IMG/VR virus record: IMGVR_UViG_3300033074_001909
Location: 32,001-96,000 of that record
Reading direction: 5' to 3' (one strand)
DNA: 64,000 bases
Source: a virus
Taxonomy: Duplodnaviria; Caudoviricetes
Shown: piece after piece, positions 3,048-54,300 of the stretch
Layout of the letters: each line of letters begins with the position of its first letter
Numbering within the stretch: the stretch's first letter is position 1
Made by a program: the position numbers and the translations under genes
Notes under the pieces: model-generated
Databases searched by the model: none
The model's input: only the letters and a program-made list of their open reading frames with translations
What the model was told of the DNA's origin: nothing

Positions 3048-3050
3048 ACT

Positions 3051-3254: not shown

Positions 3255-3266
3255 AGGGAATGGGCG

Positions 3267-3638
3267 ATGTACTACTTCGGCTGCATCGGCAAACCAGGCC
3301 ATTACCTGTGGGATCAAAGGTTACGACGTCAGTGGCAGACTCCGCGCCATTTTCCGCTGTCGCATTACGAAATTCTCGACGGTGGGTTCCTGCCTCCTGG
3401 CGAGCAGGAACAGGGCCGGGTGGTGATTTGGCGGACGTCGGGCTGGGCGATTGCTTCATTCTGGGATCGCAGTGTCGATGCGCGACCCGGATGCAGTTCG
3501 TCGTTCGTGCTGGAGTGCGAGAACGGCTTGAGTGATACGGCGATTATGGACAGGTGTCGCGCAGCGTTCCCTACGATTTTTGCACGTTTTCAGTTTGCGG
3601 TGAGCATCCCCGATTACAAAGCAGCCAGCGCCCCGTAG
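3267..3638 (+). CDS. conserved phage hypothetical protein
   Basis: MYYFGCIGKPGHYLW...SFWDRSVDARPGCSSSF; SD upstream. Confidence 0.7.
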   Translation: MYYFGCIGKPGHYLWDQRLRRQWQTPRHFPLSHYEILDGGFLPPGEQEQGRVVIWRTSGWAIASFWDRSVDARPGCSSSFVLECENGLSDTAIMDRCRAAFPTIFARFQFAVSIPDYKAASAP

Positions 3639-3656
3639 GTGCTGGGTTAGCACGGC

Positions 3657-3695
3657 GGGGGCCTGGGTTCTGTCTTCTCTCCCAGGCCCCCTTTT
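3657..3695 (+). terminator. intrinsic terminator
   Basis: GGGGGCCTGGG...CCCAGGCCCCC stem followed by TTTT. Confidence 0.7.
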
Positions 3696-4041
3696 GAAAC
3701 TTTGTGCAAGGAATCATGCGGCCCAGCGGGGCAACCCGCCACACACTGCAACGTCGTGGGCATAAGAGACGTTGCCCTGGAGCCTCGCCGTCAGGTTGAC
3801 ACGTTCGCTAACGCAGATGCGAGTGGAAACAGAGGCAAACTTGCGTGACAGCCGGGAGAGACCGGCGCTTTTTTGAAACTTTGTGTGTGGTGCCAACGAG
3901 GAATGGCGGTCCTCGTGAAACCTGGGACGGATAACACGCCCTCCTGGACGCATCCAGGGTGCGGTCCGCCGGAAAAACCGAGCCGGCCAACAACCCAGTC
4001 GTAGATCCAGGTAAGTTCGATGGCCCGTCCCGCCTTTTGAA

Positions 4042-4311
4042 TTGAAAGCGATGATTAAATTTCTGGGAACAGTAGGCGACCGCGAAGTGCTTGGGCTGGG
4101 GTTATCTCGCTATAACTGCGACAAACTGCTGGAAGGCAAGTCGATCCAAATCGACTTGGAAAAGATGCTGGCCGAAACGGATCAGTCATACGATTTGAAC
4201 AAGGCGATCGTGCTGATTTTCGGCGGCGAGACCGAGGCTGACATGCAGTTGGATCTTTACAGAATCACGGGATCGCTTCCGACGCCACGAACGCACCGCG
4301 AGGAGAATTGA
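4042..4311 (+). CDS. hypothetical protein
   Basis: ORF in operon; start uncertain (4042 or 4051). Confidence 0.6.
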   Translation: MKAMIKFLGTVGDREVLGLGLSRYNCDKLLEGKSIQIDLEKMLAETDQSYDLNKAIVLIFGGETEADMQLDLYRITGSLPTPRTHREEN

Positions 4312-4315
4312 GAAT

Positions 4316-4618
4316 ATGCAGGCCGACCAATTCGAGCGACTGATCAACCAAGAGGGCTCCCATCTAGCGTCGCAGGTCAAGATGCTCCGAGAGAAGGCGG
4401 AACATTTGATCGCGGAACACGTCGAGTCGCTCAAGGAACGCGGCGAGGCGTTTGAACTAAGCGAGGACGAATCGCGGTTGCTGATGGCTTACCGCGCTTT
4501 CAAGTCCCGCTCGCCGTCCGGCGCCGTGTTCTCCTGGAAAACGCCCGAGGAAAATGGCATTGTTCTTCCAATATCGCCCTCGTTGATCGTCGACCCCCGG
4601 GAGGTTGTGAATCCATGA
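4316..4618 (+). CDS. hypothetical protein
   Basis: ORF, tight spacing. Confidence 0.65.
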   Translation: MQADQFERLINQEGSHLASQVKMLREKAEHLIAEHVESLKERGEAFELSEDESRLLMAYRAFKSRSPSGAVFSWKTPEENGIVLPISPSLIVDPREVVNP

Positions 4619-28733: not shown

Positions 28734-29336
28734 ATGGGCAAACGCCGGATCAAACCGAGTGAACGCAAGCCGGTCGAGCCACCGCGCAAGCGGCGACGCG
28801 GCGTGGTGGACGAACCACCGGACCAAACGCCGCCCGATCCCGAGCAGACCAGCCCGTTCGAACACCTGCGGAACCCCAACCAGCGAATATTCCTGCGGGT
28901 GTACTGTCAGTGCTGGAGCATTACGCAGGCGGCCGAGGCGTCGGGCCTGTCGATATGGGCGCATTACTACTGGAAACGCACGGATGCGCTGTACCGGCGC
29001 GCGTTTGTCCTAGCCTGGAAAATCGCTGGGGACCGGTGCGAGGAAGAGGCGTATCGCCGGGCGGTGACGGGTCTTCGCCGCTTGAAGTTTGGGCCGAAAG
29101 GCAAGCCGCTGATTGATCCCGCCACGCGCCAGCCCTACGTGGAGCACGAATTTTCGGATCGGCTGCTCGAGCGGCTGCTGAAAGCCTTCAAACCACATCG
29201 CTATTGCGACCGGCAGGAGACGCAGCACAACGTGTCGGTGGATAGTCCCGCGCAGGGCAGTGGGGGCATGACGGATCTCTTAAAGACCTTCTGTGATACA
29301 CCACCAGAGTCCCCCGAATCTGCCGCTGCACCATGA
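28734..29336 (+). CDS. terS: terminase small subunit
   Basis: QRIFL..SITQAAEASG..YYW; EEEAYRRAVTG; FSDRLLERLLKA..P..Y; directly upstream of TerL. Confidence 0.8.
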   Translation: MGKRRIKPSERKPVEPPRKRRRGVVDEPPDQTPPDPEQTSPFEHLRNPNQRIFLRVYCQCWSITQAAEASGLSIWAHYYWKRTDALYRRAFVLAWKIAGDRCEEEAYRRAVTGLRRLKFGPKGKPLIDPATRQPYVEHEFSDRLLERLLKAFKPHRYCDRQETQHNVSVDSPAQGSGGMTDLLKTFCDTPPESPESAAAP

Positions 29337-31956
29337 GTCGATCCGCGACTGGCTGCACGCGGCGGCCACGATTCCGATTCAGTGGCGACGTCGGAAGTAT
29401 CTGCGCGACTGCCTGCGGGCCTCGTCCGAGTTGCGGGCCAAGTTGATCGAGAAGAACGACAGCCGGTTGACCACCCATATCCAACGGCTGTTCACGCATC
29501 CCTATTTCGCGTTCGAGCCCCGGCCCGATAATCCCGCCGCCGGCGATCAGCAGACCGGGTTTCTGGAGTCGCAGGCCTTCACGACAGTGGCTCTGGGAGG
29601 CACGGGTAGCGGCAAGAGCTACATCGGCTCACAACGGGCCATCAAGTTCCTCTGCGAGGATCAGCGACCGCCAATCAAGGACACGCCCTTCTTCGTGATC
29701 GCCGACAACCTGGAGGAATCCTCCAAGGCTTGCTGGGCGCAGAAACTCCACGATCTGTTGCCGCGGGAGTGGGTCGACTGGGACCGCATTACCTGGCGCA
29801 GCGCGAAGATGAATTTTCCGCGCATCGTGCCGCTGCGGCCCTGGCAGGACGACCCCAAGACGAACTGGGCGATTTACTTCTGCGGCTACACCCAGGACCG
29901 CAAGGCCTTCCAGGCCATCGCGGCCGGCGGCGCGTGGTTCACGGAACAATTCCCGTACGACATCTACGAGGAAGTCGTCGGGCGTATGCGACAATGGATG
30001 TTCAACGGCGCTCTGTGGCTGGAATTCACGCCGCTGGATCCGACCGACAGCGTCAAAGTCCAGGAGCTGTACGAGAAGTGGACGCGGGGCGAGCTCGACG
30101 AGGATCAATGGTCGTTCTACCGCCTCAACACCGAAGAAGCGGCGAAGAAGGGACACGTCAAGCAGGAGTTTGTCGACACGCTCAAGGCGACGATCTCACC
30201 CGAGATGCTCGCTACCCGCTTGCGCGGGGATTTCGGCTCCTACGAGGGTGTGATCTATCAGAGTCTCAACCCGCTAGTGCATTTCGTGCCCGGGACGCAA
30301 TACGACAAGTGTCCGCGCGATATTAACCTGACGTACAAGCGAGGCATCGACTGGGGCGCCGGCCCATCGAATGCGTTTGTCGTCTTGTGGGGCGCCAAGG
30401 ATTCCATGGGCCGCTGGTTCATTTTCGACGAGTATTACACCACGGATCAGCTCATGACCTGGGAAGATCACGTGCGGGAGATTCACAAGAAGGATGGGTG
30501 GAAACTCATTGGCCAGATAGACCGCGGTCTGACGACGTACCGCCTGGAGCCGATCCCAGGCGTGCCGCAGCGGTGGATTTACGAGCGCTCGAATTTTGGC
30601 CAGACCTACGCGCCACCCGAGCAGCCGGACTTATTCCGTGAGTTCGCGAAATACTGCCTGCCCGTGACGCCAGCCCGGAATGCCTTTCACCCCGGCGTGG
30701 ATTGCGTGCGGCGGCATTTGAAATTCGACGACTTCACGCTCGAGCAGCGGACCGAGCCGCAACTGTTCATCGATCGGCGCGCGTGCCCAAATCTGGCAAG
30801 AGAACTGCCAGCGCTGCAGTGGAAAGACCCGCCCAAGGCAGGCGTGAATCCTTCAAGCGCCAAGATGGAACAGAAAAAAATACATGACCACTCCTGCACG
30901 ATTTCTTCGACGCTCGTGTTGACGGAATCGGGATGGAAGCCAATTATCGAGATCCAGCGAGGCGAGATGGTGGCCTCGCTCGACGGCTGGACTCGGGTGG
31001 AATGCGGAGCGGTCAAGACGGGCGTAAATCGCCCATTGGTGCGAATCACGTTGGACAATGGGGCCGAGGTGGTGTGTACTCCCTGCCATCGGTTCCCGAC
31101 GGAGGATGGATCATGGATCGCGGCGGAACACCTGCTGGGCCGACGTTTGGCGAAGTGGTGCGATACACCACCAGGAGTGGGCAGATGGCGGAATCCATCG
31201 AGTACGGCGGAATGGTGTGGCGACGATACCCCAACTCGCGATTCCCGGCTGCTCGCTACTTCGTCAAGCGAGTTGGTAAGCGGCCTGATGCCATTCTTCT
31301 CCATCGCAGGATCTACGAAGATTTTGTGGGACCAATTCCAAAGGGAATGGCCATCCATCACAAAGACGGGTGCATTACCAACAACCACCCATCCAACCTG
31401 GAACTTTGCACGTTCCGGGATCATTCACAAAAGCATGTGTCCGACAATGTCAACATGCGACAAGGCTTACGCGAGTGGCGACAGAAGCAGCCAGGACAAC
31501 TTCGTCAAATCGCGAAAAATGCCAGCGACGCCTACTGGAGTGATCCACGCGTGGTCAGCCTTACTTGCTCGCATTGCGGCATCGCGTTTTCGTCAAAGGA
31601 CGTGCGCACTAACCGAAAGCGATACTGCTCTGGTGCATGCAATCGGCAGGCGTTGCGAACCGAAAAGCGGCTATGCAAACATTGTGGCCAGGAGTTCTTG
31701 GCGGCATCCTTCGAGCCAAACGTCTTTTGTAGCAAGCGGTGCTCTGCGTGTTATGGAGGTATCCTCCTGCGGAACCGCCGACACGTACTGCATCGCGACT
31801 GAGTCGGGTTCGATGGTGTGGGGAGGCGGAGTCGTGGCGTCAAACTGTGATGCATTGCGCTACCTGCTATACTCCGACTGGATGGGCAACACGGGTGGCA
31901 TCGAAGCCTTCCAGGCCCCGCAGCCGCATCGTCCGCAAGTGCGATTAAGGAAATGA
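29293..31956 (+). CDS. terL: terminase large subunit, intein-containing (start uncertain)
   Basis: Walker A GGTGSGKS, FTPL, RLRGDF, GIDWG, FDEYY, DHS/CDALRY. Confidence 0.9.
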   Translation: MIHHQSPPNLPLHHESIRDWLHAAATIPIQWRRRKYLRDCLRASSELRAKLIEKNDSRLTTHIQRLFTHPYFAFEPRPDNPAAGDQQTGFLESQAFTTVALGGTGSGKSYIGSQRAIKFLCEDQRPPIKDTPFFVIADNLEESSKACWAQKLHDLLPREWVDWDRITWRSAKMNFPRIVPLRPWQDDPKTNWAIYFCGYTQDRKAFQAIAAGGAWFTEQFPYDIYEEVVGRMRQWMFNGALWLEFTPLDPTDSVKVQELYEKWTRGELDEDQWSFYRLNTEEAAKKGHVKQEFVDTLKATISPEMLATRLRGDFGSYEGVIYQSLNPLVHFVPGTQYDKCPRDINLTYKRGIDWGAGPSNAFVVLWGAKDSMGRWFIFDEYYTTDQLMTWEDHVREIHKKDGWKLIGQIDRGLTTYRLEPIPGVPQRWIYERSNFGQTYAPPEQPDLFREFAKYCLPVTPARNAFHPGVDCVRRHLKFDDFTLEQRTEPQLFIDRRACPNLARELPALQWKDPPKAGVNPSSAKMEQKKIHDHSCTISSTLVLTESGWKPIIEIQRGEMVASLDGWTRVECGAVKTGVNRPLVRITLDNGAEVVCTPCHRFPTEDGSWIAAEHLLGRRLAKWCDTPPGVGRWRNPSSTAEWCGDDTPTRDSRLLATSSSELVSGLMPFFSIAGSTKILWDQFQREWPSITKTGALPTTTHPTWNFARSGIIHKSMCPTMSTCDKAYASGDRSSQDNFVKSRKMPATPTGVIHAWSALLARIAASRFRQRTCALTESDTALVHAIGRRCEPKSGYANIVARSSWRHPSSQTSFVASGALRVMEVSSCGTADTYCIATESGSMVWGGGVVASNCDALRYLLYSDWMGNTGGIEAFQAPQPHRPQVRLRK
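30895..31845 (+). mobile_element. intein in TerL (317 aa)
   Basis: C1 CTISSTLVLTESGWKPI, block B CTPCHRF, end TYCI..GVVASN|C; removal restores DHSCDALRY. Confidence 0.88.
31185..31802 (+). CDS. HNH homing endonuclease with Zn fingers, nested out of frame inside the intein
   Basis: AGGAG SD; LLHRRIYEDFVGPIPKGMAIHHKDGCITNNHPSNLE; CSHC/CSGAC/CKHC/CSKRC. Confidence 0.85.
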   Translation: MAESIEYGGMVWRRYPNSRFPAARYFVKRVGKRPDAILLHRRIYEDFVGPIPKGMAIHHKDGCITNNHPSNLELCTFRDHSQKHVSDNVNMRQGLREWRQKQPGQLRQIAKNASDAYWSDPRVVSLTCSHCGIAFSSKDVRTNRKRYCSGACNRQALRTEKRLCKHCGQEFLAASFEPNVFCSKRCSACYGGILLRNRRHVLHRD

Positions 31957-35802: not shown

Positions 35803-35905
35803 TAACAGTACACACTATTTTTTATCGAAATCCGGAAATAGTCGCAGTAGTCGATAGGGCATGGATTTAGGTATCATGCCCACAACAGGACGGCACCTCG
35901 TTCCG

Positions 35906-35936
35906 AGGCCCGGGAGTCACTCCTTGGGCCTTTTTT
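35906..35936 (+). terminator. leader terminator upstream of the portal gene
   Basis: AGGCCCGGGAG-TCA-CTCCTTGGGCCTTTTTT. Confidence 0.65.
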
Positions 35937-35946
35937 GTTGGGAAAG

Positions 35947-38900
35947 ATGAGCATGACCACCACGCAACCAGGCGGGCAGCGGATCGGCGGACAGACCTAC
36001 ATGCCCGGGCAGATGCTGCCCGAACGCTATCGCCGCGTGCTGGAGCCGTCCGACCGGCCCCGCGATCCCGCCGTCCGTGATCCGGATCTGGCTCCCAACT
36101 TAGGCCGCCATACCGTCCCGCACATCATCACCTTCCAGGGGCTGGTCACCTCCCTAGCCCGGGCCTATCGCAATCCAGACGAGGCCTTCCGACACAGCGT
36201 CGAAAACGCCCACATGATGCTGACGGACCCGACAGTGAGCGGGCCCTTGCACGCGCGGCAGATGATGACGGCGCTGCTCCAGTGGTCGGTGGAAAGCGAG
36301 GACGACAAAGATTCACAGCTCAAAGAAGCGGCCAGCCAACTCCAGAAAGTCCTGGAACGGACGCCGCGGTTCGCTGAACTGCGCCGGTGGCTGCTGGAAG
36401 CTATCTGGTATGGTCGCGCGGCCAGCCAGCACGCGATCGGATTCCACCGCGATCGCTTCGGCGTGCGACGCAGGGTGATCAAGAAATGGCTGCCGATCTC
36501 TGGCGACAAGCTTCTCTTCCGCTACGACGACGGGAGCGGGGAGTTCGACCCGGATCAGATTGGCGTGCGGGTCAGCCCGGGACTCGGCCGCGAGGATATC
36601 ATCGCCGGGCGGCGCAAACTCGAGGCCACAACCGACGGCATGGGCTACTTCCTGGAGCCCTGGGAGCGTCGGCACTGGGCGGTCCACAAGCACATGATCC
36701 GCGACGGGGAATTCGAGGATCCACTCAGCGCAGGGCAGGTGCATGGCGTCGGCCTGCGGCACTTTCTCTATTGGGTCTGGTATCAGAAGCAGGAGGCTAT
36801 GGCGCAGCTCGCCGAGGTGCTCGACCGTACTGGCGCGGGGATCACCATCTACTATTACCCCGTCGGGAATCAGGAAGCGAAAACCCAGGTGGAAAAGGTG
36901 GCCCGCGAGCAGGCGCACACCAACGTGCTGGTGATGCCGTTCGACCCGGCCAGCACAGGCGGCGACCCGTATTCGATTCAACAAATCCCGCCCAACGTAG
37001 CCGGCCTGCAGGCCCTCCAGGACATCGTGGACGGTTATTTCGGCGACATGATCACGCGGGCCATTCTGGGTCAGACGCTGTCCAGCAAACCCTCCGCAGC
37101 GGGCATGAATACGGGCGTCTCGGATCTTCAGAAAGACTCCCTGTTCCATATCGTGCGATACGACGCGGTCAATCTCCAGGAAACCATCACGCGGGAGATC
37201 CTGTTGCCGCTGCGGGACTTCAACCTACCGAAGTTCCGCAACGTGGATTTCTTCTTCAAAATCTCGACCAAAGTCAGCGCGCCGCAGGAAGAACTGGCCG
37301 CCATTTATCAGGCCTGGCAGATGGGCACCAAAATCCGCGTCCAGGATCTCTTCCAGAAGCTCGACATGGCCATGCCGGACAAAGACGACAAGGTCGTGTT
37401 TAACCCGCAGATTGTGTCAGCCATTCAGCAGGTCGAGAGCGCCCCGATGGGTGGTCTCGCCCCGCCCGGTGGCGCCGGGCCTCAGCCTCCCGGCGCCACC
37501 CCATTTCCACCCGGTGCTGCGGAAGGCACCCCTACAAGTGAGGGCGGGGGCCAAAATGAACCCCCGCCCATAGATAGAGGGGGTGCCAGCGGCCAACCGG
37601 AGCAACTGGATAAGGCCGAAAGCCCCGAGCAGGAACGCCGGAAGTTGTTTGGCCCGATCCTGTACGGTAAGCGCGAGGAGTATCTGGAGCGGATCAGGGA
37701 AGCGGTCGAGAACACCGAGCCCAACCCCACCGAGGCCCAGCGCGAGGCCGGCAATTATCGCAAGGGCGTGGTGCATTGGCGGGGTTTAGAAGTGGTGATC
37801 GAGACGCCCAAGGGTCAGCGGCGGCGCCCGGAATGGCCAGCTCTGCGGGCGCATTACGGCTACATCCGCCGGCATTACCACACGGGCGAGCAACGGCTAG
37901 TCACCAGCGAGCCGTGCGCCGACGGCGACCATCTGGATATCTTCTTGGGGCCACAGCCCGAAAGCGACATCGTGTTCGTGATCGACCAAGTGACGGCCGA
38001 CGGAAAGTTCGACGAGCACAAGTGTATCCTGGGCACGACCAACAAGCGGGACGCCCGGGCGCTGTACCTGTCGAACTATGCGGACGGGTGGAAGTGCGGT
38101 CCGATCCGGGGCATGACGATCGAGACGTTCAAGCACTGGCTCGAGCACGGAGACCTGACGAAGCCGGTGGCGCGCCAGAAACTCAGGTACGCGCGGCAAT
38201 TGTCGCTGTTTGACGATACGTTCTCGCTGGTGCGCAAGCCGAGATCACTCTTTGACGAAGGATCGCATCCCCGGGCAAAAGAGCATGTGGAGATCCAGGG
38301 CAAGGAATACGAAGGCGGGCAATGGATCCCGAAAGACGCGGCGGTGGAAGCCACGCCAGCGGCCCAAGAGAAAATCGAGGTAGTGGACAAGTCCACGGGC
38401 GAAACCGAACCACTTGAGCAAACGCTGAAACCTGGGGATAATGCCACCGCATCGCCACCGAGTCCCGAGGACGACTCCCATGACCAACCACGATCCGACG
38501 CAGAATTCGCACCTGGAGAGCCAGATTCCACCGGAGGAGATGGAGATCGAGGACGACCTGACGACGGAGAATCTGGCGGCGCAGGCGATTTGGGAGCAAA
38601 TCCAGTTGGACCGTCAGAAGAACGGATCGTCACCTCACGCCAACAGCACACGCGCCCAGCGGATCGATCCCTCGTTCCAGAGCGACTTCGACAACATCTA
38701 GACGACCACCAGCAGGAAGGCGTCGCCAAGGCGATTGCCTCTCTTCGGGATGTTGGTGGCTTCCTTAACTCCGACGGGACTGGCGTCGGTAAGGCGCAGC
38801 CGCTCGACGAACCGATTTTGACTCCCACCGGATGGAAGCGGATGGGCGATCTGCAAATCGGCGATGAAGTCATTTCAGCCGACGGATTTCCCACCAAAAT

Positions 38901-41900
38901 CAGTGGCGTCTATCCGCAAGGGCACCTGGAAGTCTATCGCGTCACATTCAGCGATGGATCGTGGACCGAATGCTGTGCAGAGCATTTATGGCAAACCCAC
39001 ACATGGTCTGATCGCCGGAATTTATCTCGCGGTTTGCGTCGCCAGGGCAATGTCCGCTCTCTACGTGAAATTGCGAGTAGTTTGGTAGCTAACGGAGGTC
39101 AATCCAACCATTCAATTCCCATGACAGCCCCCGTCGCATTTCAGCCGCGACAAATCTTGCTTGACCCGTATGTTTTGGGCGTGCTGTTGGGTGACGGAGG
39201 AATGTCCCGACAAGCATCGTTGACAGTAACCAGCGTTGACCAGGAAATTCTAGATAGCGTAGGGCATACCTTGCCTACTGGAGTGCGATTGCGACGCATT
39301 GGAAATAGTCCTAGCTACTCGATCACCACGGATCGTCGCGCAACGAAGTCAGGCAATCCAATGGTGACGGAATTACGCCGTTTGGGACTTCATGGACCAG
39401 GAAAAACATCGGATACAAAATTCATCCCGGAAGACTACAAATTCAATTCCGTTGACGTTCGATTGTCCGTCTTGCAGGGACTAATGGATACAGACGGGAC
39501 AATTGATAAGCGTGGCACAAGTTGCGTTTACACGACAACTTCACGGAAATTGGCTGATGACATTGTGTTTCTTGTGCAGTCGTTGGGGGGAACCGCAAGA
39601 ATCCAAAGCAAGCAACCAACGTATTGTTACAACGGTGATAAACGAGACGGCAAGCAAGCGTACAACGTCACCTTGTGTCTTCCTCCTGAATTCAAGCCAT
39701 TCCGGTTGTCAAGGAAGTCAGGACGAGTAGTTCCTAAGTCTAAGTACGCACCTAGGCGATACATCAAGACGGTGGAGCAAATCGGCAGTAAACCTTGTCA
39801 GTGCATTGCAGTTGAAAATAAGTCGCATTTGTATCTGACACGCGGATTCATTGTCACGCACAATACCCGGCAGCTTCTCGCCACCGCGCAGCACTATCTA
39901 GATCAGGGTAAGAAGGTCATTGTCATCGCGCCTAAGGGCGTGACCAAAGCCGACTGGAAGAAAAAGACCGTCACCGGTTCCTGGCAGAATGACAGCCAGG
40001 CCATGGGTGTGCCGATCCACGTGACGCGGGACGAGATCGACCCCAAGGCGGTCAATATCTCGAGCTACGAGAATCTCGCGAAGCTCAAACGGCAGGTCGA
40101 CGACAACACGATCGTGATGTTCGACGAGGCGCACTCGCTGAAGAATCGCGATTCCGCCCGCTCCAAGCACGGCGTGGAAATGGCCAATACCGCGGCGGCG
40201 GTACTCTTTGCCACGGCCACTCCCGTCGACAAGGTCGAGCACCTGCACTACCTGGACCGAGCCGGTGCCTTTGGCGGGCGATATTACGGCCAGACCTACG
40301 AGCAATTGGGACTGGAGCAAGTCGAGCAGAGCATTGGCGGCGGCCAGACGGTCAAGAAGTGGCAGATTCGTCCTGGCGTCAAGGCATCCGAGGTCATGCG
40401 TCGCCTGTCGGGGCTATTCACGCGATTGACGGCCGATGGCCGGATGGTCAAGCGTGAAATCAGCATGAAGGACGTGCCGGTATCGGTACGGCAGGTGAAA
40501 CTGCCTCCCGAGGCCCACGAAGTCCTGGATCGCATTGAGGAGGAACTGACTGGCACCTCGGCCAATGAGGGCCTGGAACGAGCTCGCATCCTGATGCACC
40601 AGCGGCGACAGCAGGAACCGTATAAAGTCGCCCCCGCAGTCGACGAAGCGCTGCAGGCGCTCGACGCGGGCCGGCAGGTGGTGATTTTCGCGTCACGGGT
40701 CAATGAATCGCAGGTTGGCGGAGAGGATGACGACGACGAAAACGCCATCAAGTCCGAAGGAACCATGAAACTCCTGCGGGAAGAGCTCGAGCGGCGTGGC
40801 ATCAAGCCGGCCGACATCGCGGAGATTCACGGCGGGGTCTCCAAGACGAAGATTCCGAAAGAAATGGACCGCTTCCAAGCTGGTCAGGCTCGCGTCGTGA
40901 TCGCCACGGTGGAGAGTGGCGGCACGGGCATTAACCTGGACGACACGCGAGGAGACCGGCCGCGGACGCTGATCATGATGACGGCGCCATTTTCGGCGGT
41001 GGAAAACGTCCAGGCGGCTGGCCGAGTGTGGCGGCTCAAGACGAAGAGCATTCCCGAGATCAAGTATCTGTTCGGGGATACGGAAGTAGACGATTGGAAT
41101 TCGGCGCTGATCAGCAAGAAGATGCGGACGCTGGGCGCGTCGGTAAGCGGCCAGATTGGCAAACTCGACGTGAACAATCTGAACGAGTCGGACGCGATCG
41201 ATTTCGAGTCCGAAGAGCCGTACGAGTGGCAATATCCCGGGGAGGGTGAACCGCCCTCGGCGTCGTTCACTAAACTGGATAGCGGCGAGTGGGGAATGCG
41301 AGTGGATGGCCGGGTGCGACCGGGCGAAACGGTCGAGATCGCGAAGCGGGACGGATCGAAAACGCGGCGGGTAGTCGGGAAGATCGTCAAGGCGGGCGCC
41401 GGATTCACGATCGCGACGTTGAGCGATGCGGCGCCAGCCCGCGAGCAATTGCCGCCGCCTCCACCACCGCCGCCGTCGCCGCCTCCCCCCAAAGCGCCCA
41501 CGGCGAAGCCCAGTCATCCGTTCGAGGCACTGGCGGCGTGGTCGCAGCCGAAAAAGGTGAACACGGCGCAAGGGCCACGGATGGTGCGCAGCGCGCGCCC
41601 GACGGACAAATTCTGGAAAGAGTGGGGCAAGGACAAGGAGCGATTGAAGCGTCAGGGGATCAGCGTCTCGAAGTACCAAGGAGAATGGCAGATTTCCTGG
41701 TGGCAGGAGGCACCTGATCGCAACGCGAAACGCTACGCCAAGGACATCCTGCCCGGCGGACTCGCCGACGACGCGCCACCGGTGGATGCCGCAGCCTTAG
41801 CCCGCGGCATCGCCATCGAGATGGAGCACACAGACGATCCGGCGATCGCCAAGGAAATCGCGGCCGACCATCTGGCGGAATTCCCGGACTACTACGACGC

Positions 41901-42390
41901 CTTGGAACAAATGGAAGCGTCGCTCCGGTCGCGTGCGTCGAAACTGGGAGATCGCCTGCGCTACGCCAAGGACTTAGCAGACCTGTCGGCCGAACCGCTC
42001 ACCTACGCCTGCGCCTGCCGGCAGCGGTACGCGAAGGGTGACGAGTCGAGTCACGATCACGAACTGGGGCATGTAAGCGACCTGGAATTCGGGCAGGTGA
42101 GCGAGACGCCGGCATGGCGTGAGGCGTGGCAGCAAGAACTCGCCAGCGGCGAACTGAACGAGGAATCCAGCGAGAATCCAGCCGAGGGGCTGGCCGAGTA
42201 TGTGGCGCTGGTGCTGCAGTCCCCGAAGCAGGCTCGCGACGAGTACCCGGTTTGCTGGGAATCGCTCGAGATGGCCGGCATGATCGAAGACGTGGCAAGC
42301 GACGGTCCAGCCCGTTATGCTTACGACGAAAGCCAGCACCCTCGTGACGATGATGGCATGGTTCAAGAATACTCCAAATTAACAGGTTGA
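35947..42390 (+). CDS. portal (DUF935/Mu gp29-like) fused to polyvalent cargo: PPase-like domain, SF2/strawberry-notch-like helicase (with intein), DUF5661-like domain
   Basis: LLEAIWYG, GVGL..LYW, ITRAILGQTLS (portal); NYRKG..IETPKG..HYGYI..DGDHLDIFLGP..FDEHK; DGTGVGK/T, FDEAH, GGTGINL, QAAGRVWR; GIAIEMEHTDDP..AKEIAADHL.E.PDYY. Confidence 0.85.
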   Translation: MSMTTTQPGGQRIGGQTYMPGQMLPERYRRVLEPSDRPRDPAVRDPDLAPNLGRHTVPHIITFQGLVTSLARAYRNPDEAFRHSVENAHMMLTDPTVSGPLHARQMMTALLQWSVESEDDKDSQLKEAASQLQKVLERTPRFAELRRWLLEAIWYGRAASQHAIGFHRDRFGVRRRVIKKWLPISGDKLLFRYDDGSGEFDPDQIGVRVSPGLGREDIIAGRRKLEATTDGMGYFLEPWERRHWAVHKHMIRDGEFEDPLSAGQVHGVGLRHFLYWVWYQKQEAMAQLAEVLDRTGAGITIYYYPVGNQEAKTQVEKVAREQAHTNVLVMPFDPASTGGDPYSIQQIPPNVAGLQALQDIVDGYFGDMITRAILGQTLSSKPSAAGMNTGVSDLQKDSLFHIVRYDAVNLQETITREILLPLRDFNLPKFRNVDFFFKISTKVSAPQEELAAIYQAWQMGTKIRVQDLFQKLDMAMPDKDDKVVFNPQIVSAIQQVESAPMGGLAPPGGAGPQPPGATPFPPGAAEGTPTSEGGGQNEPPPIDRGGASGQPEQLDKAESPEQERRKLFGPILYGKREEYLERIREAVENTEPNPTEAQREAGNYRKGVVHWRGLEVVIETPKGQRRRPEWPALRAHYGYIRRHYHTGEQRLVTSEPCADGDHLDIFLGPQPESDIVFVIDQVTADGKFDEHKCILGTTNKRDARALYLSNYADGWKCGPIRGMTIETFKHWLEHGDLTKPVARQKLRYARQLSLFDDTFSLVRKPRSLFDEGSHPRAKEHVEIQGKEYEGGQWIPKDAAVEATPAAQEKIEVVDKSTGETEPLEQTLKPGDNATASPPSPEDDSHDQPRSDAEFAPGEPDSTGGDGDRGRPDDGESGGAGDLGANPVGPSEERIVTSRQQHTRPADRSLVPERLRQHLDDHQQEGVAKAIASLRDVGGFLNSDGTGVGKAQPLDEPILTPTGWKRMGDLQIGDEVISADGFPTKISGVYPQGHLEVYRVTFSDGSWTECCAEHLWQTHTWSDRRNLSRGLRRQGNVRSLREIASSLVANGGQSNHSIPMTAPVAFQPRQILLDPYVLGVLLGDGGMSRQASLTVTSVDQEILDSVGHTLPTGVRLRRIGNSPSYSITTDRRATKSGNPMVTELRRLGLHGPGKTSDTKFIPEDYKFNSVDVRLSVLQGLMDTDGTIDKRGTSCVYTTTSRKLADDIVFLVQSLGGTARIQSKQPTYCYNGDKRDGKQAYNVTLCLPPEFKPFRLSRKSGRVVPKSKYAPRRYIKTVEQIGSKPCQCIAVENKSHLYLTRGFIVTHNTRQLLATAQHYLDQGKKVIVIAPKGVTKADWKKKTVTGSWQNDSQAMGVPIHVTRDEIDPKAVNISSYENLAKLKRQVDDNTIVMFDEAHSLKNRDSARSKHGVEMANTAAAVLFATATPVDKVEHLHYLDRAGAFGGRYYGQTYEQLGLEQVEQSIGGGQTVKKWQIRPGVKASEVMRRLSGLFTRLTADGRMVKREISMKDVPVSVRQVKLPPEAHEVLDRIEEELTGTSANEGLERARILMHQRRQQEPYKVAPAVDEALQALDAGRQVVIFASRVNESQVGGEDDDDENAIKSEGTMKLLREELERRGIKPADIAEIHGGVSKTKIPKEMDRFQAGQARVVIATVESGGTGINLDDTRGDRPRTLIMMTAPFSAVENVQAAGRVWRLKTKSIPEIKYLFGDTEVDDWNSALISKKMRTLGASVSGQIGKLDVNNLNESDAIDFESEEPYEWQYPGEGEPPSASFTKLDSGEWGMRVDGRVRPGETVEIAKRDGSKTRRVVGKIVKAGAGFTIATLSDAAPAREQLPPPPPPPPSPPPPKAPTAKPSHPFEALAAWSQPKKVNTAQGPRMVRSARPTDKFWKEWGKDKERLKRQGISVSKYQGEWQISWWQEAPDRNAKRYAKDILPGGLADDAPPVDAAALARGIAIEMEHTDDPAIAKEIAADHLAEFPDYYDALEQMEASLRSRASKLGDRLRYAKDLADLSAEPLTYACACRQRYAKGDESSHDHELGHVSDLEFGQVSETPAWREAWQQELASGELNEESSENPAEGLAEYVALVLQSPKQARDEYPVCWESLEMAGMIEDVASDGPARYAYDESQHPRDDDGMVQEYSKLTG
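38794..39864 (+). mobile_element. class 3 (Ala-1, WCT) LAGLIDADG intein in the helicase Walker A
   Basis: GK|AQPLDEPILTPTGW; HLW, CQCI, VTHN|T; LGVLLGDG and LQGLMDTDG; lower GC. Confidence 0.92.
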
Positions 42391-43626
42391 TTATGCCCAG
42401 TTTCTCTGTATTTCCTGGTCGAAGATAGTCTTGTGGTGCCACGTCGGTCCGAACGACAGGCTGGATACGCCAGCCGCGTGAGTCCGGAAGCAATGCTCGA
42501 TCCACTCCAGAAACTCGGTTATCGAAGAGGCAACGGATAAACTGGCAGTCGGCGGCAATTCCGACAGCAGGTAGTCGGCTCGGCGCCCGTCATTCGGTAG
42601 CTCTTCTAACTGATAGAAATCGTGATGAACGATCACGGGCGACAGGTAGTCCAGCCAAGTGACGGCCAGGGAGTGCAGAGGTCCGCCGCAGTGTCGCGAG
42701 GCATATTCCAGGAGGTCGCAACAGTGGTAGCCGACCCGCAGCGGGCCTTGCCAGGGATTGGTCACGTTGTGGTCTGACAAAAGTCGCATGTCAGGGCGCC
42801 AGCCCGGGAACGGCCCGGCGCCGTGCCGTGTGGCCAGGGACCGCAGAATGCCCATGTGATGGACATCACGGATCCCCATCGCCTCGAGCGGCTCCCGGGC
42901 AGCATCAAGCGTCACAGTCGACCATGTGGTGTAAGGGTGGAAGCCCACGTGCTCGTCCAATAGGACGCCTTGGGCGCCCTCGAAGATGGCGCAATCCAAC
43001 TTGCCGCTAAGGCCGGTGGCGGACAATTGCAGGTGAAGTTCTTGTGCCACTTCCTGGTACTTGTCGGCATACTCCAGGAACGCCGGCAGGGTGACGCTGA
43101 GGCCATAGTGCTCGGCCTGGGCCTGCAGTTTGTCTCGGCAGACGGTCCGCGACGACAGATCCTTGGCGAAGATAGTCAGGTCGAGGTGGCACCGGGCCAT
43201 GTGCCGGCATTCGCCGATCCCCAGTCCGCAGGAACCGTGCCGCTGGTCCCCGCGAGCGCGCTCCCGTTCGCGATTGATGAAGCGATGCGCCACGGTCGCC
43301 ACGGGGCACTCCGGATGGACACGCAGCAGCGACCACGGGTCGGAGATACCCAGTTCTTGGAGGTGTCGAGCCTCATTACGCATGGCCAGGGGGTCGATGA
43401 TCATGTCCCGCCAGAGCCACGTGGGGACGCCGTGCAGGGTGCCCGCTCCCCATTGGCTGAAGCAATGGGATCGCCCATCCGGCAAAACCACATGATGGGC
43501 GGCCTGGTATCCGCCGCTGTAGCGTACGACCAGGTCCGCCCGCCAGCGTTGGCAGAGGGCATCGACCATGGTGCCTTTCCCCTCGTCACCAAACCCGAGC
43601 CCCACGGTCACAATCGCCCTCGCCAT
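42391..43626 (-). CDS. divergent adenylosuccinate-synthetase (PurA)-like protein
   Basis: GLGFGDEGKG, RYSGGYQAAHHV, HGSCGLGIGE, FEGAQGVLLD, TRHGAGPF. Confidence 0.88.
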   Translation of the reverse strand: MARAIVTVGLGFGDEGKGTMVDALCQRWRADLVVRYSGGYQAAHHVVLPDGRSHCFSQWGAGTLHGVPTWLWRDMIIDPLAMRNEARHLQELGISDPWSLLRVHPECPVATVAHRFINRERERARGDQRHGSCGLGIGECRHMARCHLDLTIFAKDLSSRTVCRDKLQAQAEHYGLSVTLPAFLEYADKYQEVAQELHLQLSATGLSGKLDCAIFEGAQGVLLDEHVGFHPYTTWSTVTLDAAREPLEAMGIRDVHHMGILRSLATRHGAGPFPGWRPDMRLLSDHNVTNPWQGPLRVGYHCCDLLEYASRHCGGPLHSLAVTWLDYLSPVIVHHDFYQLEELPNDGRRADYLLSELPPTASLSVASSITEFLEWIEHCFRTHAAGVSSLSFGPTWHHKTIFDQEIQRNWA

Positions 43627-43640
43627 ATACCCTCGACTCC

Positions 43641-44603
43641 TTACAACGTTGTTAAGCCGGTGCCTTTGGTGACATTAGCCACGGCCCCCGGGCCATCCCG
43701 CAGCACGACGGCCTTGGTGACCGTATCGGCAGAGCGGCCCGCCTCGCCCAGATCCTGTGCCAACCCGGACAGGTCTACGGCGCCTTCACAGACGCCGATT
43801 TGGGCCGCGATGAAGTCGCTGATGGCGGCCGGATCCTCGAGACGGAGCGCCTGCTGTCCCAAGTGTTGCTTCCAGAATTCCAGGATGCGCGGCTCGTTGT
43901 AGTAGGACGTCAGGTTCGGCAGGATGTAAAACACTTCCCACCGCTCCTGGGCCTCTTTCACGATTTGCTCCAGGGGAATGCTAGCTTCGAGTTTGTCGCC
44001 GAAGATGTTCTCCACCTGGTGACGATCGACGCGGGGATAGGCCATTTCATCGCCGATCAGGAAGGCATAGCCCTTCTTCTGACGCTTCTCCCAGGCGTCG
44101 CAGACCGTCTTGCGGGCCAGGAAATACAACGCCAGCTCGTAGGATTCGGTTCGTTGGCCACCCCCTCCGCCCTCGAGGAACAGGTTGGTCAGGTCGTTCT
44201 CGATCTCAATTCCAGACTCGAATTGCCCGACTTGGAGCGGCGCCCGGTCGCACGTGGCATCCCCGACGCCGGCCACGCAAATAGCGGCATCCGCCAAATA
44301 GGACTTGCGCAGCAGCAGGCCCATCAGGGAGCAGAGATTCGCTTGCAAGATGCCCGGGACGGTGTTCATCGAACCGGTGACGTCGAAGCCGACGAACACG
44401 GGCACGGATTCGGGATGCTGCGCGCTGTCGCGGCACTCGCGGATGCCGGCCTTGAGTTTGGCGGGATCGAGCGAGTGATGAGCCGCCGCAGCGGTTTTTC
44501 CTTTGCGGATCGCGTCGTCGTGCGCAAACGTCGGCGCGTTCGTGGCCGACCGATGCAGAGCACGCGAACTGTAATGTTCATCTGACCAACTTGTGCCACC
44601 CAT
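43641..44603 (-). CDS. vWA-domain protein
   Basis: MIDAS DVTGSM, GVGDA, LQVGQFES, EGGGGG..ESYELA, IGDE. Confidence 0.88.
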   Translation of the reverse strand: MGGTSWSDEHYSSRALHRSATNAPTFAHDDAIRKGKTAAAAHHSLDPAKLKAGIRECRDSAQHPESVPVFVGFDVTGSMNTVPGILQANLCSLMGLLLRKSYLADAAICVAGVGDATCDRAPLQVGQFESGIEIENDLTNLFLEGGGGGQRTESYELALYFLARKTVCDAWEKRQKKGYAFLIGDEMAYPRVDRHQVENIFGDKLEASIPLEQIVKEAQERWEVFYILPNLTSYYNEPRILEFWKQHLGQQALRLEDPAAISDFIAAQIGVCEGAVDLSGLAQDLGEAGRSADTVTKAVVLRDGPGAVANVTKGTGLTTL

Positions 44604-44618
44604 GGTGAAAACCCCTTG

Positions 44619-45584
44619 CTACATGTCCAACGGAACAAACACCGGAGGTCCGAAAAGCTGATCCAGCAAGTCGGTAAACTCCGCACACAACTGCCACGCA
44701 TCGGAGGGCGCTAATCGCCCCGGCAGGCAGCAACTACGCATAAAGCCGCGCATCAGCGGCGGCAGAGCCTCCTCGCCGCCGGCCATCTGTACCAGCGTGC
44801 GGGCGGCCAAGTGAATATCCAGCGCGGGCGTCGCCTCCTTGCCGGGATACCACGCCTTGTGGCTGCTGGGCACGACAGGGACTGGACTGCCCAGTTTGGC
44901 GGCATGGATCCAGTCGCACAGCACCAGCCCGTGATTGGCAGCCGACCAGAGGCAGTGCTGGGGCAGGACGGCACAGTGCGCCCAGCCGTAGCGATGGGCA
45001 AAGCCCAGGACGGTGAGCATCCGCTTGAACATCCACGCCAGGTGCCGGCTGTCGAGCGGGGCATGCTTTGTCAACACGTCGGCCGTGGTGAACAGCCCGG
45101 GACGCCGGTGGAACACGTTCACCCGGACTTTTCCCACCAGGAACGATTCCACGGGGAGGGGCAGGTAATGCGAGTAGGTCGACGTGCCCGCCGCCTGTTC
45201 ATGCAAGTGCTCGAGCACTTCCCGCTCTTTGGCGAGGAGGTTATTCGCGGCCGGCAGCGTGACATAAGGCGTTTTGAGGAGGTAGGCCTGTCCGTCACTG
45301 GTCGCATACTGCACGTCGCACAGATCGCCGCGGCCCAGCGTGGAGCGCACGGAATACTCGCGGGTCGGCGAGGTCACCACCTGGAGCGGGGCCTGACTGG
45401 CGGCCGCTTTGAGTGCCCCGAGCTCGCGAAACAGCCGGGCCGCCCGATCGCGGTCCCGTTCGGGGAAACGGTCCGGATGCAGCCGCACCGCGTACCAGCG
45501 ATAGAGCGTGTCGGGGTCGGGACCGAAGAACGCCACTGGATCCAGTCGAGCCGAGGACAGTTCGCGCTCCAGGTCAGCCAGCAT
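44619..45584 (-). CDS. J-domain-like (HPD) fused to a Ser/Thr kinase-like fold
   Basis: YRWYAVRLHPDR; LGRGDLCDV, LLK, AKE..L, AHCAVLPQH, LCDW. Confidence 0.78.
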   Translation of the reverse strand: MLADLERELSSARLDPVAFFGPDPDTLYRWYAVRLHPDRFPERDRDRAARLFRELGALKAAASQAPLQVVTSPTREYSVRSTLGRGDLCDVQYATSDGQAYLLKTPYVTLPAANNLLAKEREVLEHLHEQAAGTSTYSHYLPLPVESFLVGKVRVNVFHRRPGLFTTADVLTKHAPLDSRHLAWMFKRMLTVLGFAHRYGWAHCAVLPQHCLWSAANHGLVLCDWIHAAKLGSPVPVVPSSHKAWYPGKEATPALDIHLAARTLVQMAGGEEALPPLMRGFMRSCCLPGRLAPSDAWQLCAEFTDLLDQLFGPPVFVPLDM

Positions 45585-51166: not shown

Positions 51167-51306
51167 AATGAATCGAATGATCCACAATGACGGCACGCTT
51201 GAAGTTGCGGCGAAAAGTGCTGTCGGTGATCGGTCGCTAGAAGTCTCGGCGCCCGTTGGCAATATTGCCCGTTCGGGTAGGATGGCCAGCACGGAGGAAC
51301 CGGACC

Positions 51307-54300
51307 ATGGCGACAGGATTCGCTGATCGGTATGCGGCGGAATTTGAAGAGGACAAGCATCCTCGCGACGAAGACGGCCAGTTCACGTTGAAAGTCTCGA
51401 AGATCCACGGCCCCAAGGGGGAAAAGTTCGAGAATCTGGGCGGCAAGCAGCAAGACCTGTTTGCTTTCCGTGGCGAAAAGGGGCAGATGAACCTCTTTTC
51501 CGATGCTGGCGTACCGGATGAATTGCTGCCGAAGCACATCCGCAAGGGCAAGCCGGACACCTACGCCAAGGACGAAGATCCACCCGACTCAGGCCCGCAG
51601 TGGATGACCCTGGGCGGCGGCGCGCGGGCCCTGGTCGCCGAGGACGGCACGATCCTGCAAGGCTGCGAAGGCGTCAAAGGCTACGACCTCGACGAACTGG
51701 ACGAGACCCGAGACGAGCGGGCCGCCAAGCAAGAGCAGGCCGAGGACGCGGGCTGGACGAGCGCCAAAAGCGACCGGGCCCGCGAGACATGGGAAGCCTT
51801 CAAGAACAGCGACCCGACGCACCCACACTTCATCGGCTTGGTCCGGCACGGTGGTAAGTTCCACGCCTTCGACGAGAGCGCTGGGAAACTGCAGGAGCAG
51901 CTCGGCATCGGCGATGGGCAGACGGCCGAGTTCGACGAGGACAAATTGCCGCATCACATGGAGCGGCTGATTGAGAATGGGCATCGGGTAGCCGTGATCG
52001 ACCGGGCCGAGGACGGGACGCCGGATTTGGACAGCGACGCGGACCCCGAGGCCCAGCAGGCGGTGGCAGAGGCCCACGAGGATGTGGCGGAGCAACAGGA
52101 GACCAAACCGGCTGCGGCCGGCTTCGGCATTGAGCCCGTCCATCCCGAGCGACTGAAATTGACCCAAGACGGCCGCGAGATCGGTTACATGAACTTGCGC
52201 GTCATGGGGGACCGGGGCTACATCGACGATACGTCGATTCACGCCGCATCGCGCGGGCAAGGCGTCATGCGGCAGCTATGGCCGCAGATCGAGCAGCACT
52301 TCCGTGATCAGGGAGCCACGTCCATTCGCGCGGACGTGGTCGATCCAGCGGTAGGGGAAAAGGTCTGGGGACCGCTGGGCTTCCAGAAGGAAGGCATGTC
52401 GGGGCCGGTGGAGGTGTATCGCAAGCACCTGGACAGTCCGGCAGCCGATTCGGAACAGGCGACCGACAAGCCACCTAGCACCAAGCGTGGTCGACTGCCA
52501 AGCACGGACGACCCTGCGCATCACGCCGTGGCGCAGCGGTTCGGTATCCCTCCGGAAACCGTCAAGGAGATCCTCGAGACGCATCCGGATGAATTATCCC
52601 GCCGCGATAACTACTTCCCGCCGAACAGTCAGCGAGATGAAGTGGTCGGCCCGACACTGGACTACGAGCCCCATCCTCTGGGATCGGCCAAAATCGATTC
52701 GAGTCAGCACAAGGCCGGCGAGACCGACAATGCCTACGTGGATTTCCTGACGGAGTTCGACCCGCAGCAACTGAAACTCAGTGAGCCTGAAGACGGCATG
52801 AGCAAGAGCCAGTCCGTAGCTGCCTATGCGGACTGGATTAAGGCGGGCATGGAACCGCCGCCTATCAGTGTGTTCGACAGTGCGAACGGAAATGGGAATC
52901 TCGTGTCGACAAACCGCCGTCGCGTGCTGGCTGCGCAGCAAGCTGGCGCCGACAAAATCGTAGGCTGGCACGGGAAGAATAATCCCGAGACGGGATTGCC
53001 GCTCAAGCTGGGCGATATCAAGCGAGCTTATGAAGAAGCCAAGGGGCAGGGCGCGGCAGCATCGGAATCCGACCAGCAGGAGCAGACGCCGGCCGACACG
53101 GCCGGCGAAGCGGACGACTGGAACGCCGCCACCCAGTCCCCGGCCGAGGCCACCGATGACCAATTGGCCCGGGCCATCGAATTCGCCAGCCACCTGCACG
53201 GCCACCATCAGCGTAACGCCCAGAGCGGCCAGATCACTCCCGAGCAACTCACCTCCCTGCACGACATGATCGACGGCCACGTGGCCACGATGCAGGCCGA
53301 ACTGGAAAGGAGAAAGCATGCACAAGACCAGCCCGCAGACCGAGGAAACGCAGCCGCCAGTCCAGGCGGAACCGATGACGCATCAGCAACTGGCGCAGAA
53401 ACTCGACCGACAAGCGGAACTGCTGCAGCAGATCCTGGCCCGACTGGATCACTTGGAACGCGGCACCATGATGCGGGCCAGCGCATCGCCCAGGCCCCCG
53501 GCCCCGTCCGCAGCCTCTTAGAGTCGCTCCATCGACTGCGGGACACCCGCAAGACGGGGCAAGTCGAGACGAAGGAACTGGGGCACGAGTACGCCCGGGA
53601 AATGTACGATCACTTGAAGTCCCTCCGGCACGCCGGGGACGACTTTGGCGAGGTGCATGACCTGTCGCAGGAACTGGGCCACGGGGCGATCGGGTACGCG
53701 TCCCCCGCCGGCAATGTGGCGATGGTCCCGCCGAAATTCAAGGGACAGGACTGGCAAGTGCGGTACACGCTGCCGCATGAGTCGCAGCAGGCCCCGGCTG
53801 CAACTCCCGCCGACGCGCCCAGTGAGCCAGCCGGCCAGGGCGACGAACTCGAACTGCTCGACGACGTGATGGAAGGCGACGCCTACGAAGGCGATCTCCC
53901 CGCCAGCGACGCCGGAGGCGGCTTCCCGTGGGAAGATGCCGGGCAGGATGAACCGCCGACCGCCCCGTCGCAGCAGCCAGCGTACTCCGACGCATGGCGC
54001 GACCTGCACGCGCAGCATCAGGACTTGGTCTACCGCACCATCCCGCATCGGGAGCAGCAGTATCGGCAGGCAGTATCCCAGGCCCAACGCGACCAACAGC
54101 GGTTTGCGGCGAAGGCCGCCGAGTACCAGTCACAGGCGGATCAACTCGAGAGCGTCACGCCCCGCGATCCGGCTCACGCCGTGCGCATGAAGTCGGACCG
54201 GCCTTACGCTGAGGCCCGCCGGCGGATCGACAAGCTTCGCAAGATGAGCGCCGACTTGGATCGCAAGGCCGACGAAGCGAAACTCCATCCCCGGATTGAG

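Follow-up and report, generated by a model that had tools for sequence, protein, structure and literature searches.

Organization of the extended portal gene

The window analysed here is a stretch of 64,000 nt that corresponds to positions 32,001 to 96,000 of the virus record IMGVR_UViG_3300033074_001909 (Duplodnaviria; Caudoviricetes), a linear IMG/VR record of 106,332 bp that is ~75% complete. On the plus strand of this window, positions 35947 to 42390 hold a gene whose product starts as a phage portal protein and continues, in the same frame, into a long series of enzymatic domains, which we describe as a portal-anchored polyvalent protein. The gene lies in a single open frame that runs from the first TTG codon at 35935 to 42390 (2151 codons), and residue numbers are counted from this TTG throughout. 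Because a terminator-like hairpin with a T-run (35905-35932) abuts TTG 35935, the true start is probably either ATG 35947, the one taken by an earlier sequence-only reading of the window and giving a product of 2,147 amino acids, or ATG 35953. The genes encoding TerS (28734-29336) and TerL (29293-31956) are located ~4 kb upstream of the portal gene.

The N-terminal part of the protein (35947-37440, residues ~1-502) is a portal domain of the Mu gp29/DUF935 type, whose crown helices end at about residue 501. The Pfam family Portal_Mu (PF06074) matched residues 93-476 with an E-value of 1e-32 and 114.2 bits, against a cut-off of 23.9, and the match covered positions 5-334 of the 336 positions in the profile. 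An AlphaFold2 model of residues 1-560, built from 22 homologues, reached a mean predicted local distance difference test (pLDDT) score of 70. The top Foldseek matches of the portal model were all portals, with 151 matches at E ≤ 1e-3; among them were those of JBD30 (8rka, 1e-14), Pakpunavirus P7-1, Mu (9khx, 3e-11), HFTV1 and G20c, at E-values between 1e-14 and 1e-9. At the sequence level, the best matches among cultured phages were ~25% identical and belonged to Mu-like Pseudomonas phages. The PF06074 match was unique in the 106-kb record, in a search that was limited to this portal family and to the ~75% of the genome that the record represents. The crown of solved portals points into the capsid. 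Since the chain leaves the portal after the crown, the cargo should begin inside the head, and a portal acting as the carrier of about 12 cargo copies, as had been proposed from the sequence, is the natural reading of an attachment at the crown end when those portals are taken as a guide. At the other end of the domain, residues 15-30 (QRIGGQTYMPGQMLPERY, in the interval 35935-36025) resemble the V.I.GK.Y.GGQ.IP element of a junction module described below, and the N-termini of the relatives P0036, P0046 and P0057 resemble this element as well.

We assessed the integrity of the reading frame with Logan contigs from four public runs (X1, X3, X5 and X9) aligned to the gene. X1 contained one identical contig and may be the source sample. 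X3, a sludge run from a different study, contributed a contig over 35935-38396 with 2 substitutions and no gaps and a second contig over 38432-41329 with zero differences, while X5, a wastewater run from a third study, contributed contigs over 36235-38150 with 26 substitutions and, again, no gaps. Contigs from X3 and X5 spanned both the junction between the portal and the inorganic-pyrophosphatase-like (InPase) domain and an intein located further downstream without indels, and no insertions or deletions were reported in the gene-aligned contigs of the four runs. Of the 40 strain differences listed, 27 lay at codon position 3, upstream as well as downstream of the junction between portal and cargo. 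A missed stop codon or a frameshift after the portal was ruled out, as the contigs of the four runs showed no indels. We also discarded a programmed -1 frameshift that would produce a short portal: the sole slippery heptamer near the junction, GGGTTTA (at residue 616, with an immediate -1 stop), is non-slippery in X5 and X9.

These results agree with several claims of the sequence-only reading. The DUF935-like portal that it placed at the N-terminus was recovered both by Pfam and by the fold comparison, and the proposed in-frame continuation into cargo holds, since the open frame is one and contigs of other studies carry no indels. It had pointed to positions 37400-37700 as the place to look for a missed stop, and none was found there, the contigs bridging the junction gap-free. 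Finally, the survey of homologous portals that it recommended yielded more than 100 with long in-frame C-terminal chains.

Cargo modules and the helicase intein

The portal domain is followed by a Pro/Gly-rich linker (37441-37650, residues 503-572) that is predicted to be disordered from its composition and from pLDDT values below 50 at residues 503-560. Immediately after the linker there is a GPILYGK motif (residues 573-579), and kindred contexts (GPILHAK, GPIQFAR, PIQYAAE) occur in homologues right after the portal. The first enzymatic domain, a type I inorganic-pyrophosphatase-like InPase (37732-38145, residues 600-737), contains a DGDxxD acidic motif and was matched by PF18823 with an E-value of 2e-34 and 118.7 bits (cut-off 26.8). 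Its closest solved relative consists of residues 639-761 of gp19, the 765-amino-acid portal of phage Pa193 (PDB 9b41, E 9e-22), whose DGDEVD, a predicted metal-binding motif, aligns with DGDHLD in our protein. Next comes a junction module (38170-38463, residues 746-843) that comprises an RYAR site at residue 751, the sequence QLSLFD, an HPR-type tag and the element V.I.GK.Y.GGQWIP. This module recurs between domains of homologues and is 56% identical to residues 1266-1376 of a second giant protein encoded in the window (51256-56376).

The chain continues with a Strawberry-notch (Sno)-like superfamily 2 (SF2) ATPase that is interrupted by an intein. The N-extein (38647-38793) ends in the first part of the Walker A motif, DGTGVGK, and the C-extein (39865-41169, residues 1311-1745) contains the motifs DEAH, ATATP and QAAGRVWR. 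Pfam families AAA_34 (PF13872, 31.0 bits against 27), Helicase_C_4 (PF13871, 31.9 against 30.5) and Helicase_C matched over residues 1389-1743, and PHROG 62, 'DNA helicase', was matched with an E-value of 3e-35. Helicase motifs I, II, III and VI are all present, motif I being complete only when the intein is removed. Homologues without the intein read DGTGVGKTRQ, whereas in this protein an insert of 357 amino acids splits GVGK from T within the Walker A loop. Because the intein interrupts the P-loop, the helicase would need protein splicing to bind ATP. Relatives of the helicase, and also of the InPase, are labelled DarB-like antirestriction proteins in PHROGs and RefSeq.

The insert (38794-39864, residues 954-1310) presents the features of a class-3 intein, that is, a position 1 other than Cys, Ser or Thr, a Trp in block B, a Cys in block F and a Thr in block G (PMC7664689). 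It has Ala at position 1, ends in His-Asn and is followed by Thr at position +1. Its best PDB matches were the class-3 inteins MchDnaB1 (6rix) and MsmDnaBi1 (6bs8), with E-values from 7e-16 to 5e-14, and its EHLW, CQCIAV and VTHN|T sequences align with the Trp, the block-F Cys and the Thr-His-Asn of MchDnaB1. The middle of the intein contains a LAGLIDADG homing endonuclease (LAGLIDADG_3, 42.8 bits against 22.5; Hom_end, 26.7 against 21.1) with the motifs LGVLLGDGG and LQGLMDTDGT. With regard to the related class-3 DnaB inteins 6rix and 6bs8, it shares Ala1, the Trp-Cys-Thr set and the insertion into a P-loop after GK; it differs in that the host is an SF2 Sno-like helicase in a putative virion protein and in that the LAGLIDADG domain has been kept, the solved ones being mini-inteins. 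The GC content of the intein is 0.50 and that of its third codon positions 0.51, lower than in the portal and helicase coding regions around it (0.61-0.62 and 0.77-0.80), and for this reason it is probably a recent arrival. No joint across 38794-39864, as expected of an intein-free allele, was present in the contigs of the four runs, a result that carries no inference on empty sites in the lineage, and the intein-less state is known only from more distant homologues.

Two further observations concern this region. P0004, a relative with a 73% identical portal, contains the same helicase with two other inteins, a Cys-1 intein before TGVGKT and another one inside the DExH box, so that on sequence comparison the helicase is an intein hot spot. 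In addition, the X5 strain accumulates 26 differences in 36235-38150 compared to 0-1 in 38175-41474, where the intein and the helicase are located, a pattern that an exchange of recent date could explain, as could co-conversion in a homing tract.

Downstream of the helicase, two small modules (residues 1760-1835 and 1855-1930; 41212-41724) are split by a poly-Pro run. When compared with the homologues by phmmer, each module matched an identical set of six, all of which have the helicase (P0004, P0005, P0008, P0009, P0011 and P0012), and among relatives they occur only alongside this helicase. The poly-Pro run itself (41452-41484) draws unrelated contigs in the run alignment. A DUF5661 domain (PF18905, 47.6 bits) occupies residues 1951-1994 (41785-41916), with RYAK at residues 1933 and 2009 flanking it. 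Pfam searches at E ≤ 10 that covered the N-terminal part, the linkers, the modules after the helicase and the C-terminal domain matched only the intein and DUF5661, and the C-terminal domain obtained only chance matches when its sequence was compared with the PDB.

The C-terminal domain contains the core of a zincin metallopeptidase (42046-42285, residues 2038-2117), with HELGH at residue 2042, an Asp three residues past the second His (HExxH-xx-D) and an EGLAE third-ligand helix. The HExxH-xx-D variant has been described for the 'MPTase' of phage polyvalent proteins (PMC5512222). A HMMER search of 1.84 billion representatives identified 133 relatives of the core, which is conserved over residues 2039-2117 and in most cases forms the very C-terminal end of the protein (length 70-2,200 amino acids). 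Their alignment has the consensus YAHExxHAxDG...EGFAEF, in which E39, H42 and D45 were kept in at least 90% of 30 relatives and E80 was invariant. Among these 30, Pfam assigned ATLF to 10 and Peptidase_M90 to 7. The helices of the core were modelled by AlphaFold2 with pLDDT above 90, and Foldseek related them to PPEP-2 (6fpc), PPEP-1/3 and the catalytic domain of lethal factor at probabilities of ~1.0 and E-values of 0.07 or weaker; the nearest clusters in an Atlas search were ATLF, which we take as a lead. Since the N-terminal beta-sheet subdomain is absent and the upstream part was modelled with low confidence, we call this region a zincin core, with an activity that is uncertain. The assignment is also transitive because the protein itself was unmatched, and it draws on the ATLF matches of the relatives, the fold matches and the Atlas lead. 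The idea that this peptidase cuts the poly-Pro linkers, suggested by the PPEP-like fold, was dropped, as we found nothing supporting it.

As for the domain list of the sequence-only reading, every domain that it named was confirmed by Pfam: its PPase-like domain is the InPase, the DUF5661-like domain corresponds to PF18905 and the SF2 helicase to AAA_34 and Helicase_C_4. It had overlooked the 357-amino-acid intein in the P-loop, counted there among 'further small domains', together with the C-terminal zincin core and the Tyr-Ala sites at the junctions.

Junction motifs, related portals and known systems

The borders between domains of the chain are marked by two recurrent motifs. Five R-Y-A motifs are present, all of them between domains: after the InPase (residue 751), on either side of DUF5661 (1933 and 2009) and on either side of the peptidase core (2031 and 2127). 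We counted the stricter motif [RK]YA[KR] 4 times in the portal chain, twice in the second giant protein and 5 times in a 569-amino-acid product encoded at 61134-62843, while shuffled sequences gave means of 0.04-0.08, and only 2 occurrences were found in the remaining 79,089 residues of stop-to-stop open reading frames. The end of the Pa193 portal aligns ~3 residues before the site at 751. The second motif is a tag of the type HPR-x3-G, often placed after QLSLFD, with 41 occurrences distributed over 31 of the 114 portal homologues, none in shuffles and none within the portal domain of these homologues. In many relatives of the peptidase the tag lies 125-175 residues before HExxH, and in the stand-alone ones of ~250 amino acids it is N-terminal. 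The chain examined here terminates in an RYA motif combined with an HPR tag (RYAYDESQHPRDDDG, 42313-42357), recognized as a sequence motif. We found no description of the HPR tag or of [RK]YA[KR] punctuation in the literature, and the tag is absent from PMC5512222 and from the MuF-toxin paper PMC5576092. At the C-terminal tag, a close strain in X3 replaces 28 letters between 42328 and 42357 with 774 different ones, a change that, as judged from the sequence, is compatible with modules being gained or lost at such tags.

Two other proteins of the window share these motifs. The second giant protein (51256-56376, plus strand, 1,706 amino acids), in which GNAT was the only Pfam match, begins with RYA...HPRDEDGQF and contains the ~100-amino-acid junction module; because the RYA-HPR tag and the junction module are shared, it is probably capsid cargo too. 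The 569-amino-acid product of 61134-62843 (plus strand), with its five [RK]YA[KR] sites, has an acidic middle and a coiled-coil tail, and its gene lies directly upstream of the genes for a scaffold (phrog_673) and the major head protein (phrog_1005), which PHROGs located at positions 2939-3376 and 3448-4488 of locus L116. In the Atlas search, the N-terminal 200 residues gave TM values of 0.52-0.58 to the clusters of Phage_GPO (P2 gpO), Mu-like_Pro (Mu protease I) and S78, so that the protein is a candidate prohead protease-scaffold. With Pfam, none of the families Mu-like_Pro, Phage_Mu_F, Phage_capsid and Peptidase_S78 was found in the record, while PHROGs detected the scaffold and the major head protein.

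Extended portals are frequent among the relatives of this protein. In protein databases we found 70 clusters of portal relatives with 1,183-3,765 amino acids and 45 shorter ones, with the cargo shuffled among them; C-terminal extensions are present in about two thirds of the portal clade and reach ~3,200 amino acids. The 67 complete relatives in IMG/VR comprise 22 of at most 600 amino acids and 45 longer ones, up to 2,701. InPase is the commonest cargo (21 of 50 extended IMG/VR relatives), at least 10 relatives end directly after it, and the helicase described here was present in 1 of the 50. Other cargo includes sigma-70, NUDIX, ParB, ADP-ribosyltransferase (ART), topoisomerase IB, methyltransferases and 2H. 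The portal relatives P0019, P0021, P0079, P0084-P0087 and P0097 are fused to sigma-70 region 2/4 domains, with one fusion to topoisomerase IB. In GTDB we located 34 related loci, most of them in metagenome-assembled genomes of Planctomycetota (Pirellulales, Planctomycetaceae and Thermoguttaceae), and about half of these copies are stand-alone portals of ~540 amino acids, the others reaching 635-1,333. Some of these loci are probably prophages, since two of them (L010 and L027) sit on contigs of 1.1 and 2.4 Mb. The clade probably infects Planctomycetota, to judge from the genomes that carry these sequences.

Portals are usually described as stand-alone rings. Fusions of portals to effector domains have nevertheless been reported: InPase, PBECR and 2H domains by Iyer et al. 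2017 (PMC5512222), with BcepF1.124 as a portal-InPase example, and Nudix and ART domains in PMC9503650, all of which were read as head-packaged effectors (PMC5512222, PMC9503650). Like the polyvalent proteins of these two studies, the present protein joins unrelated enzyme domains in one chain and is encoded beside terminase and portal genes; packing into the head, injection and processing by a peptidase have been proposed for the class (PMC5512222). InPase, the Sno-like helicase, DUF5661 and the zincin core occur here in one frame, with the terminase nearby, and the hub domains of the class (MPTase, InPase and SWI2/SNF2) are represented by the HExxH-xx-D peptidase core, the InPase and the Sno-like ATPase, respectively. 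The published portal fusions are simple, with one effector, whereas this one is a five-module chain of ~1,650 amino acids with an intein. The sequence-only reading, which presented the fusion of a portal to cargo as a departure from stand-alone portals, is therefore right in that the chain is a portal-anchored polyvalent protein, while portal-enzyme fusions as such were already in print (PMC5512222, PMC9503650, and Pa193).

The closest parallels for the N-terminal half are the portals of Pa193 and Mu. Gp19 of Pa193, a cultured PB1-like phage of Pseudomonas, is likewise a portal with a homologous C-terminal InPase, and its residues 529-765 have no density in the virion cryo-electron microscopy map (PMC11456595); it differs in ending directly after the InPase and in a portal domain that is not closely related. 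Mu gp29 (gpH) belongs to the same Pfam portal family, has the same fold and is trimmed at its C-terminus, the last ~124 residues being missing from the virion, which has been ascribed to protease I (PMC11915804). The tail removed from gp29 is short and contains no known enzyme, and the present record, in contrast to Mu, has no Pfam match to Mu-like_Pro or Phage_Mu_F.

For the helicase, the relevant system is DarB of phage P1, a large helicase-containing capsid protein that is delivered with the DNA, and that is a separate protein loaded via DarA/Hdf. Both proteins contain a helicase, and the PHROG 'DarB-like' matches are confined to the helicase and InPase parts of our chain. The chain differs from DarB in being fused to a portal and in its lack of a methyltransferase, and because no such domain was found we do not consider it a member of the DarB family. 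By analogy, it may work like DarB.

Proposed packaging, processing and delivery of the cargo

Taken together, these observations make it likely, though well short of certain, that the portal gene of this phage was extended into a phage-type polyvalent protein, whose cargo is enclosed in the capsid, matured by splicing, freed by a protease and ejected. According to this model, twelve portal subunits would seed the procapsid and thereby enclose twelve cargo chains within the shell; by simple arithmetic, these chains would amount to ~2 MDa, a small share of the capsid volume. The intein would splice itself out and restore the ATP site of the helicase. The head-maturation protease, perhaps helped by the zincin, would then cut the Tyr-Ala sites, a step comparable to the C-terminal trimming of the Mu portal. 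Cleavage would be necessary for release because cargo that stays covalently tethered could not be ejected. The portal-InPase unit would probably stay at the vertex; the portal of Pa193, for comparison, ends ~3 residues short of where the first site lies here. Once released, the helicase block, DUF5661 and the peptidase would exit the capsid together with the DNA and become active early in the newly infected cell. There, the freed cargo would most likely act against restriction or nucleotide-based defence, a role for which the two grounds are the analogy with P1 DarB-like helicases and what Iyer et al. proposed for InPase.

Several points weigh against this model. Its elements, from packaging and stoichiometry through splicing and cleavage to ejection, are all inferred. 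No canonical [RK]YA[KR] site exists between the portal and the InPase, where only an LYGK variant is found. The enzyme that would cut the other sites is a candidate suggested by Atlas structure leads only: Pfam and PHROGs gave no match for the product of 61134-62843, and none of the Pfam protease families was matched in the record. The zincin domain itself had no Pfam match even at E ≤ 10, it has a gap where stand-alone relatives have ~100 residues that form the N-terminal beta-sheet half, and the core may be inactive. The Pfam search detected no methyltransferase domain in the chain, which makes the analogy with DarB a loose one. Finally, the missing ~25% of the record could hold a second portal or a MuF gene.

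The lack of a canonical site after the portal would also be expected if the cargo were never released, but stayed on the portal crown and worked on the DNA of the phage itself while this is packaged or ejected, for example with the helicase as a DNA handler and the InPase at the vertex. The Pa193 portal, which keeps its C-terminal InPase and ends right there, and the IMG/VR relatives (at least 10) that end directly after the InPase fit such an arrangement. We nonetheless regard it as unlikely. The junction sites flank the downstream domains and are also found in the candidate protease-scaffold, a peptidase core is placed at the end of the chain, and relatives carry cargo that is typical of effectors used early in infection (sigma-70, ADP-ribosyltransferase, NUDIX, topoisomerase IB, methyltransferases and ParB).

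Putative cleavage sites between domains would suit equally well a polyprotein in which the fusion serves to couple expression, the cargo being cut off before or during assembly and working in the cell that makes the virions; P1 DdrB, for instance, is processed ahead of packaging (PMC5512222). For a protein that stays outside the capsid, however, a portal anchor would be odd. The gene is also placed among late head genes, beside the terminase, and the same tags on a separate giant protein suggest a shared capsid route, so that we find this option quite improbable. The source is a metagenomic viral contig, linear and ~75% complete, so that errors of assembly or sequencing could in principle have merged separate genes, or the contig could be chimeric. 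This explanation is close to refuted, because the contigs from two further studies run through the junction and the intein without indels, strain differences favour codon position 3, and more than 100 fused portals that are homologous to this one are known from other contigs.

Within the preferred model of enclosed and released cargo, the distribution of the motifs allows a more tentative proposal, to which we give rather less than an even chance. The chain could be a capsid-internal polyprotein with a two-part junction code, in which a Tyr-Ala site is cut by the prohead protease and a tag of the HPR-x3-G-x-F type heads each module. This code would be common to the portal cargo, the second giant protein and the protease-scaffold, and the junctions would double as recombination joints for the swapping of cargo.

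Some features of the neighbouring genes deserve mention. In TerL (29293-31956, plus strand, 887 amino acids), the PHROG match extends over 829 residues but only 513 positions of the profile, pointing to a large insert. On the minus strand, a three-gene cassette (42391-45584) converges on the portal gene, and its last gene ends one base past the portal stop codon. The cassette encodes an adenylosuccinate-synthetase-like protein (phrog_1211 'PurZ-type', E 2e-60; Pfam Adenylsucc_synt), a phrog_2971 protein and a kinase-like protein.

The general principle of fusing enzymes to portals is already in print. This case adds the class-3 intein in the P-loop of the helicase, the truncated zincin, a clade of probable Planctomycetota phages whose portal cargo is highly variable, and junction sites that also occur in a candidate protease-scaffold. 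A clade of uncultured phages uses the portal as an anchor for swappable enzymes that amount to as much as ~2,700 residues, and the putatively virion-borne sigma factor on the portal of some relatives merits a separate look. The gene provides a testable model for the enclosure of cargo, its maturation by splicing, its cutting at Tyr-Ala sites and its delivery. Should the junction sites prove to be genuine targets of a protease, the virion cargo and its processed fragments would become predictable from sequence in many phages.

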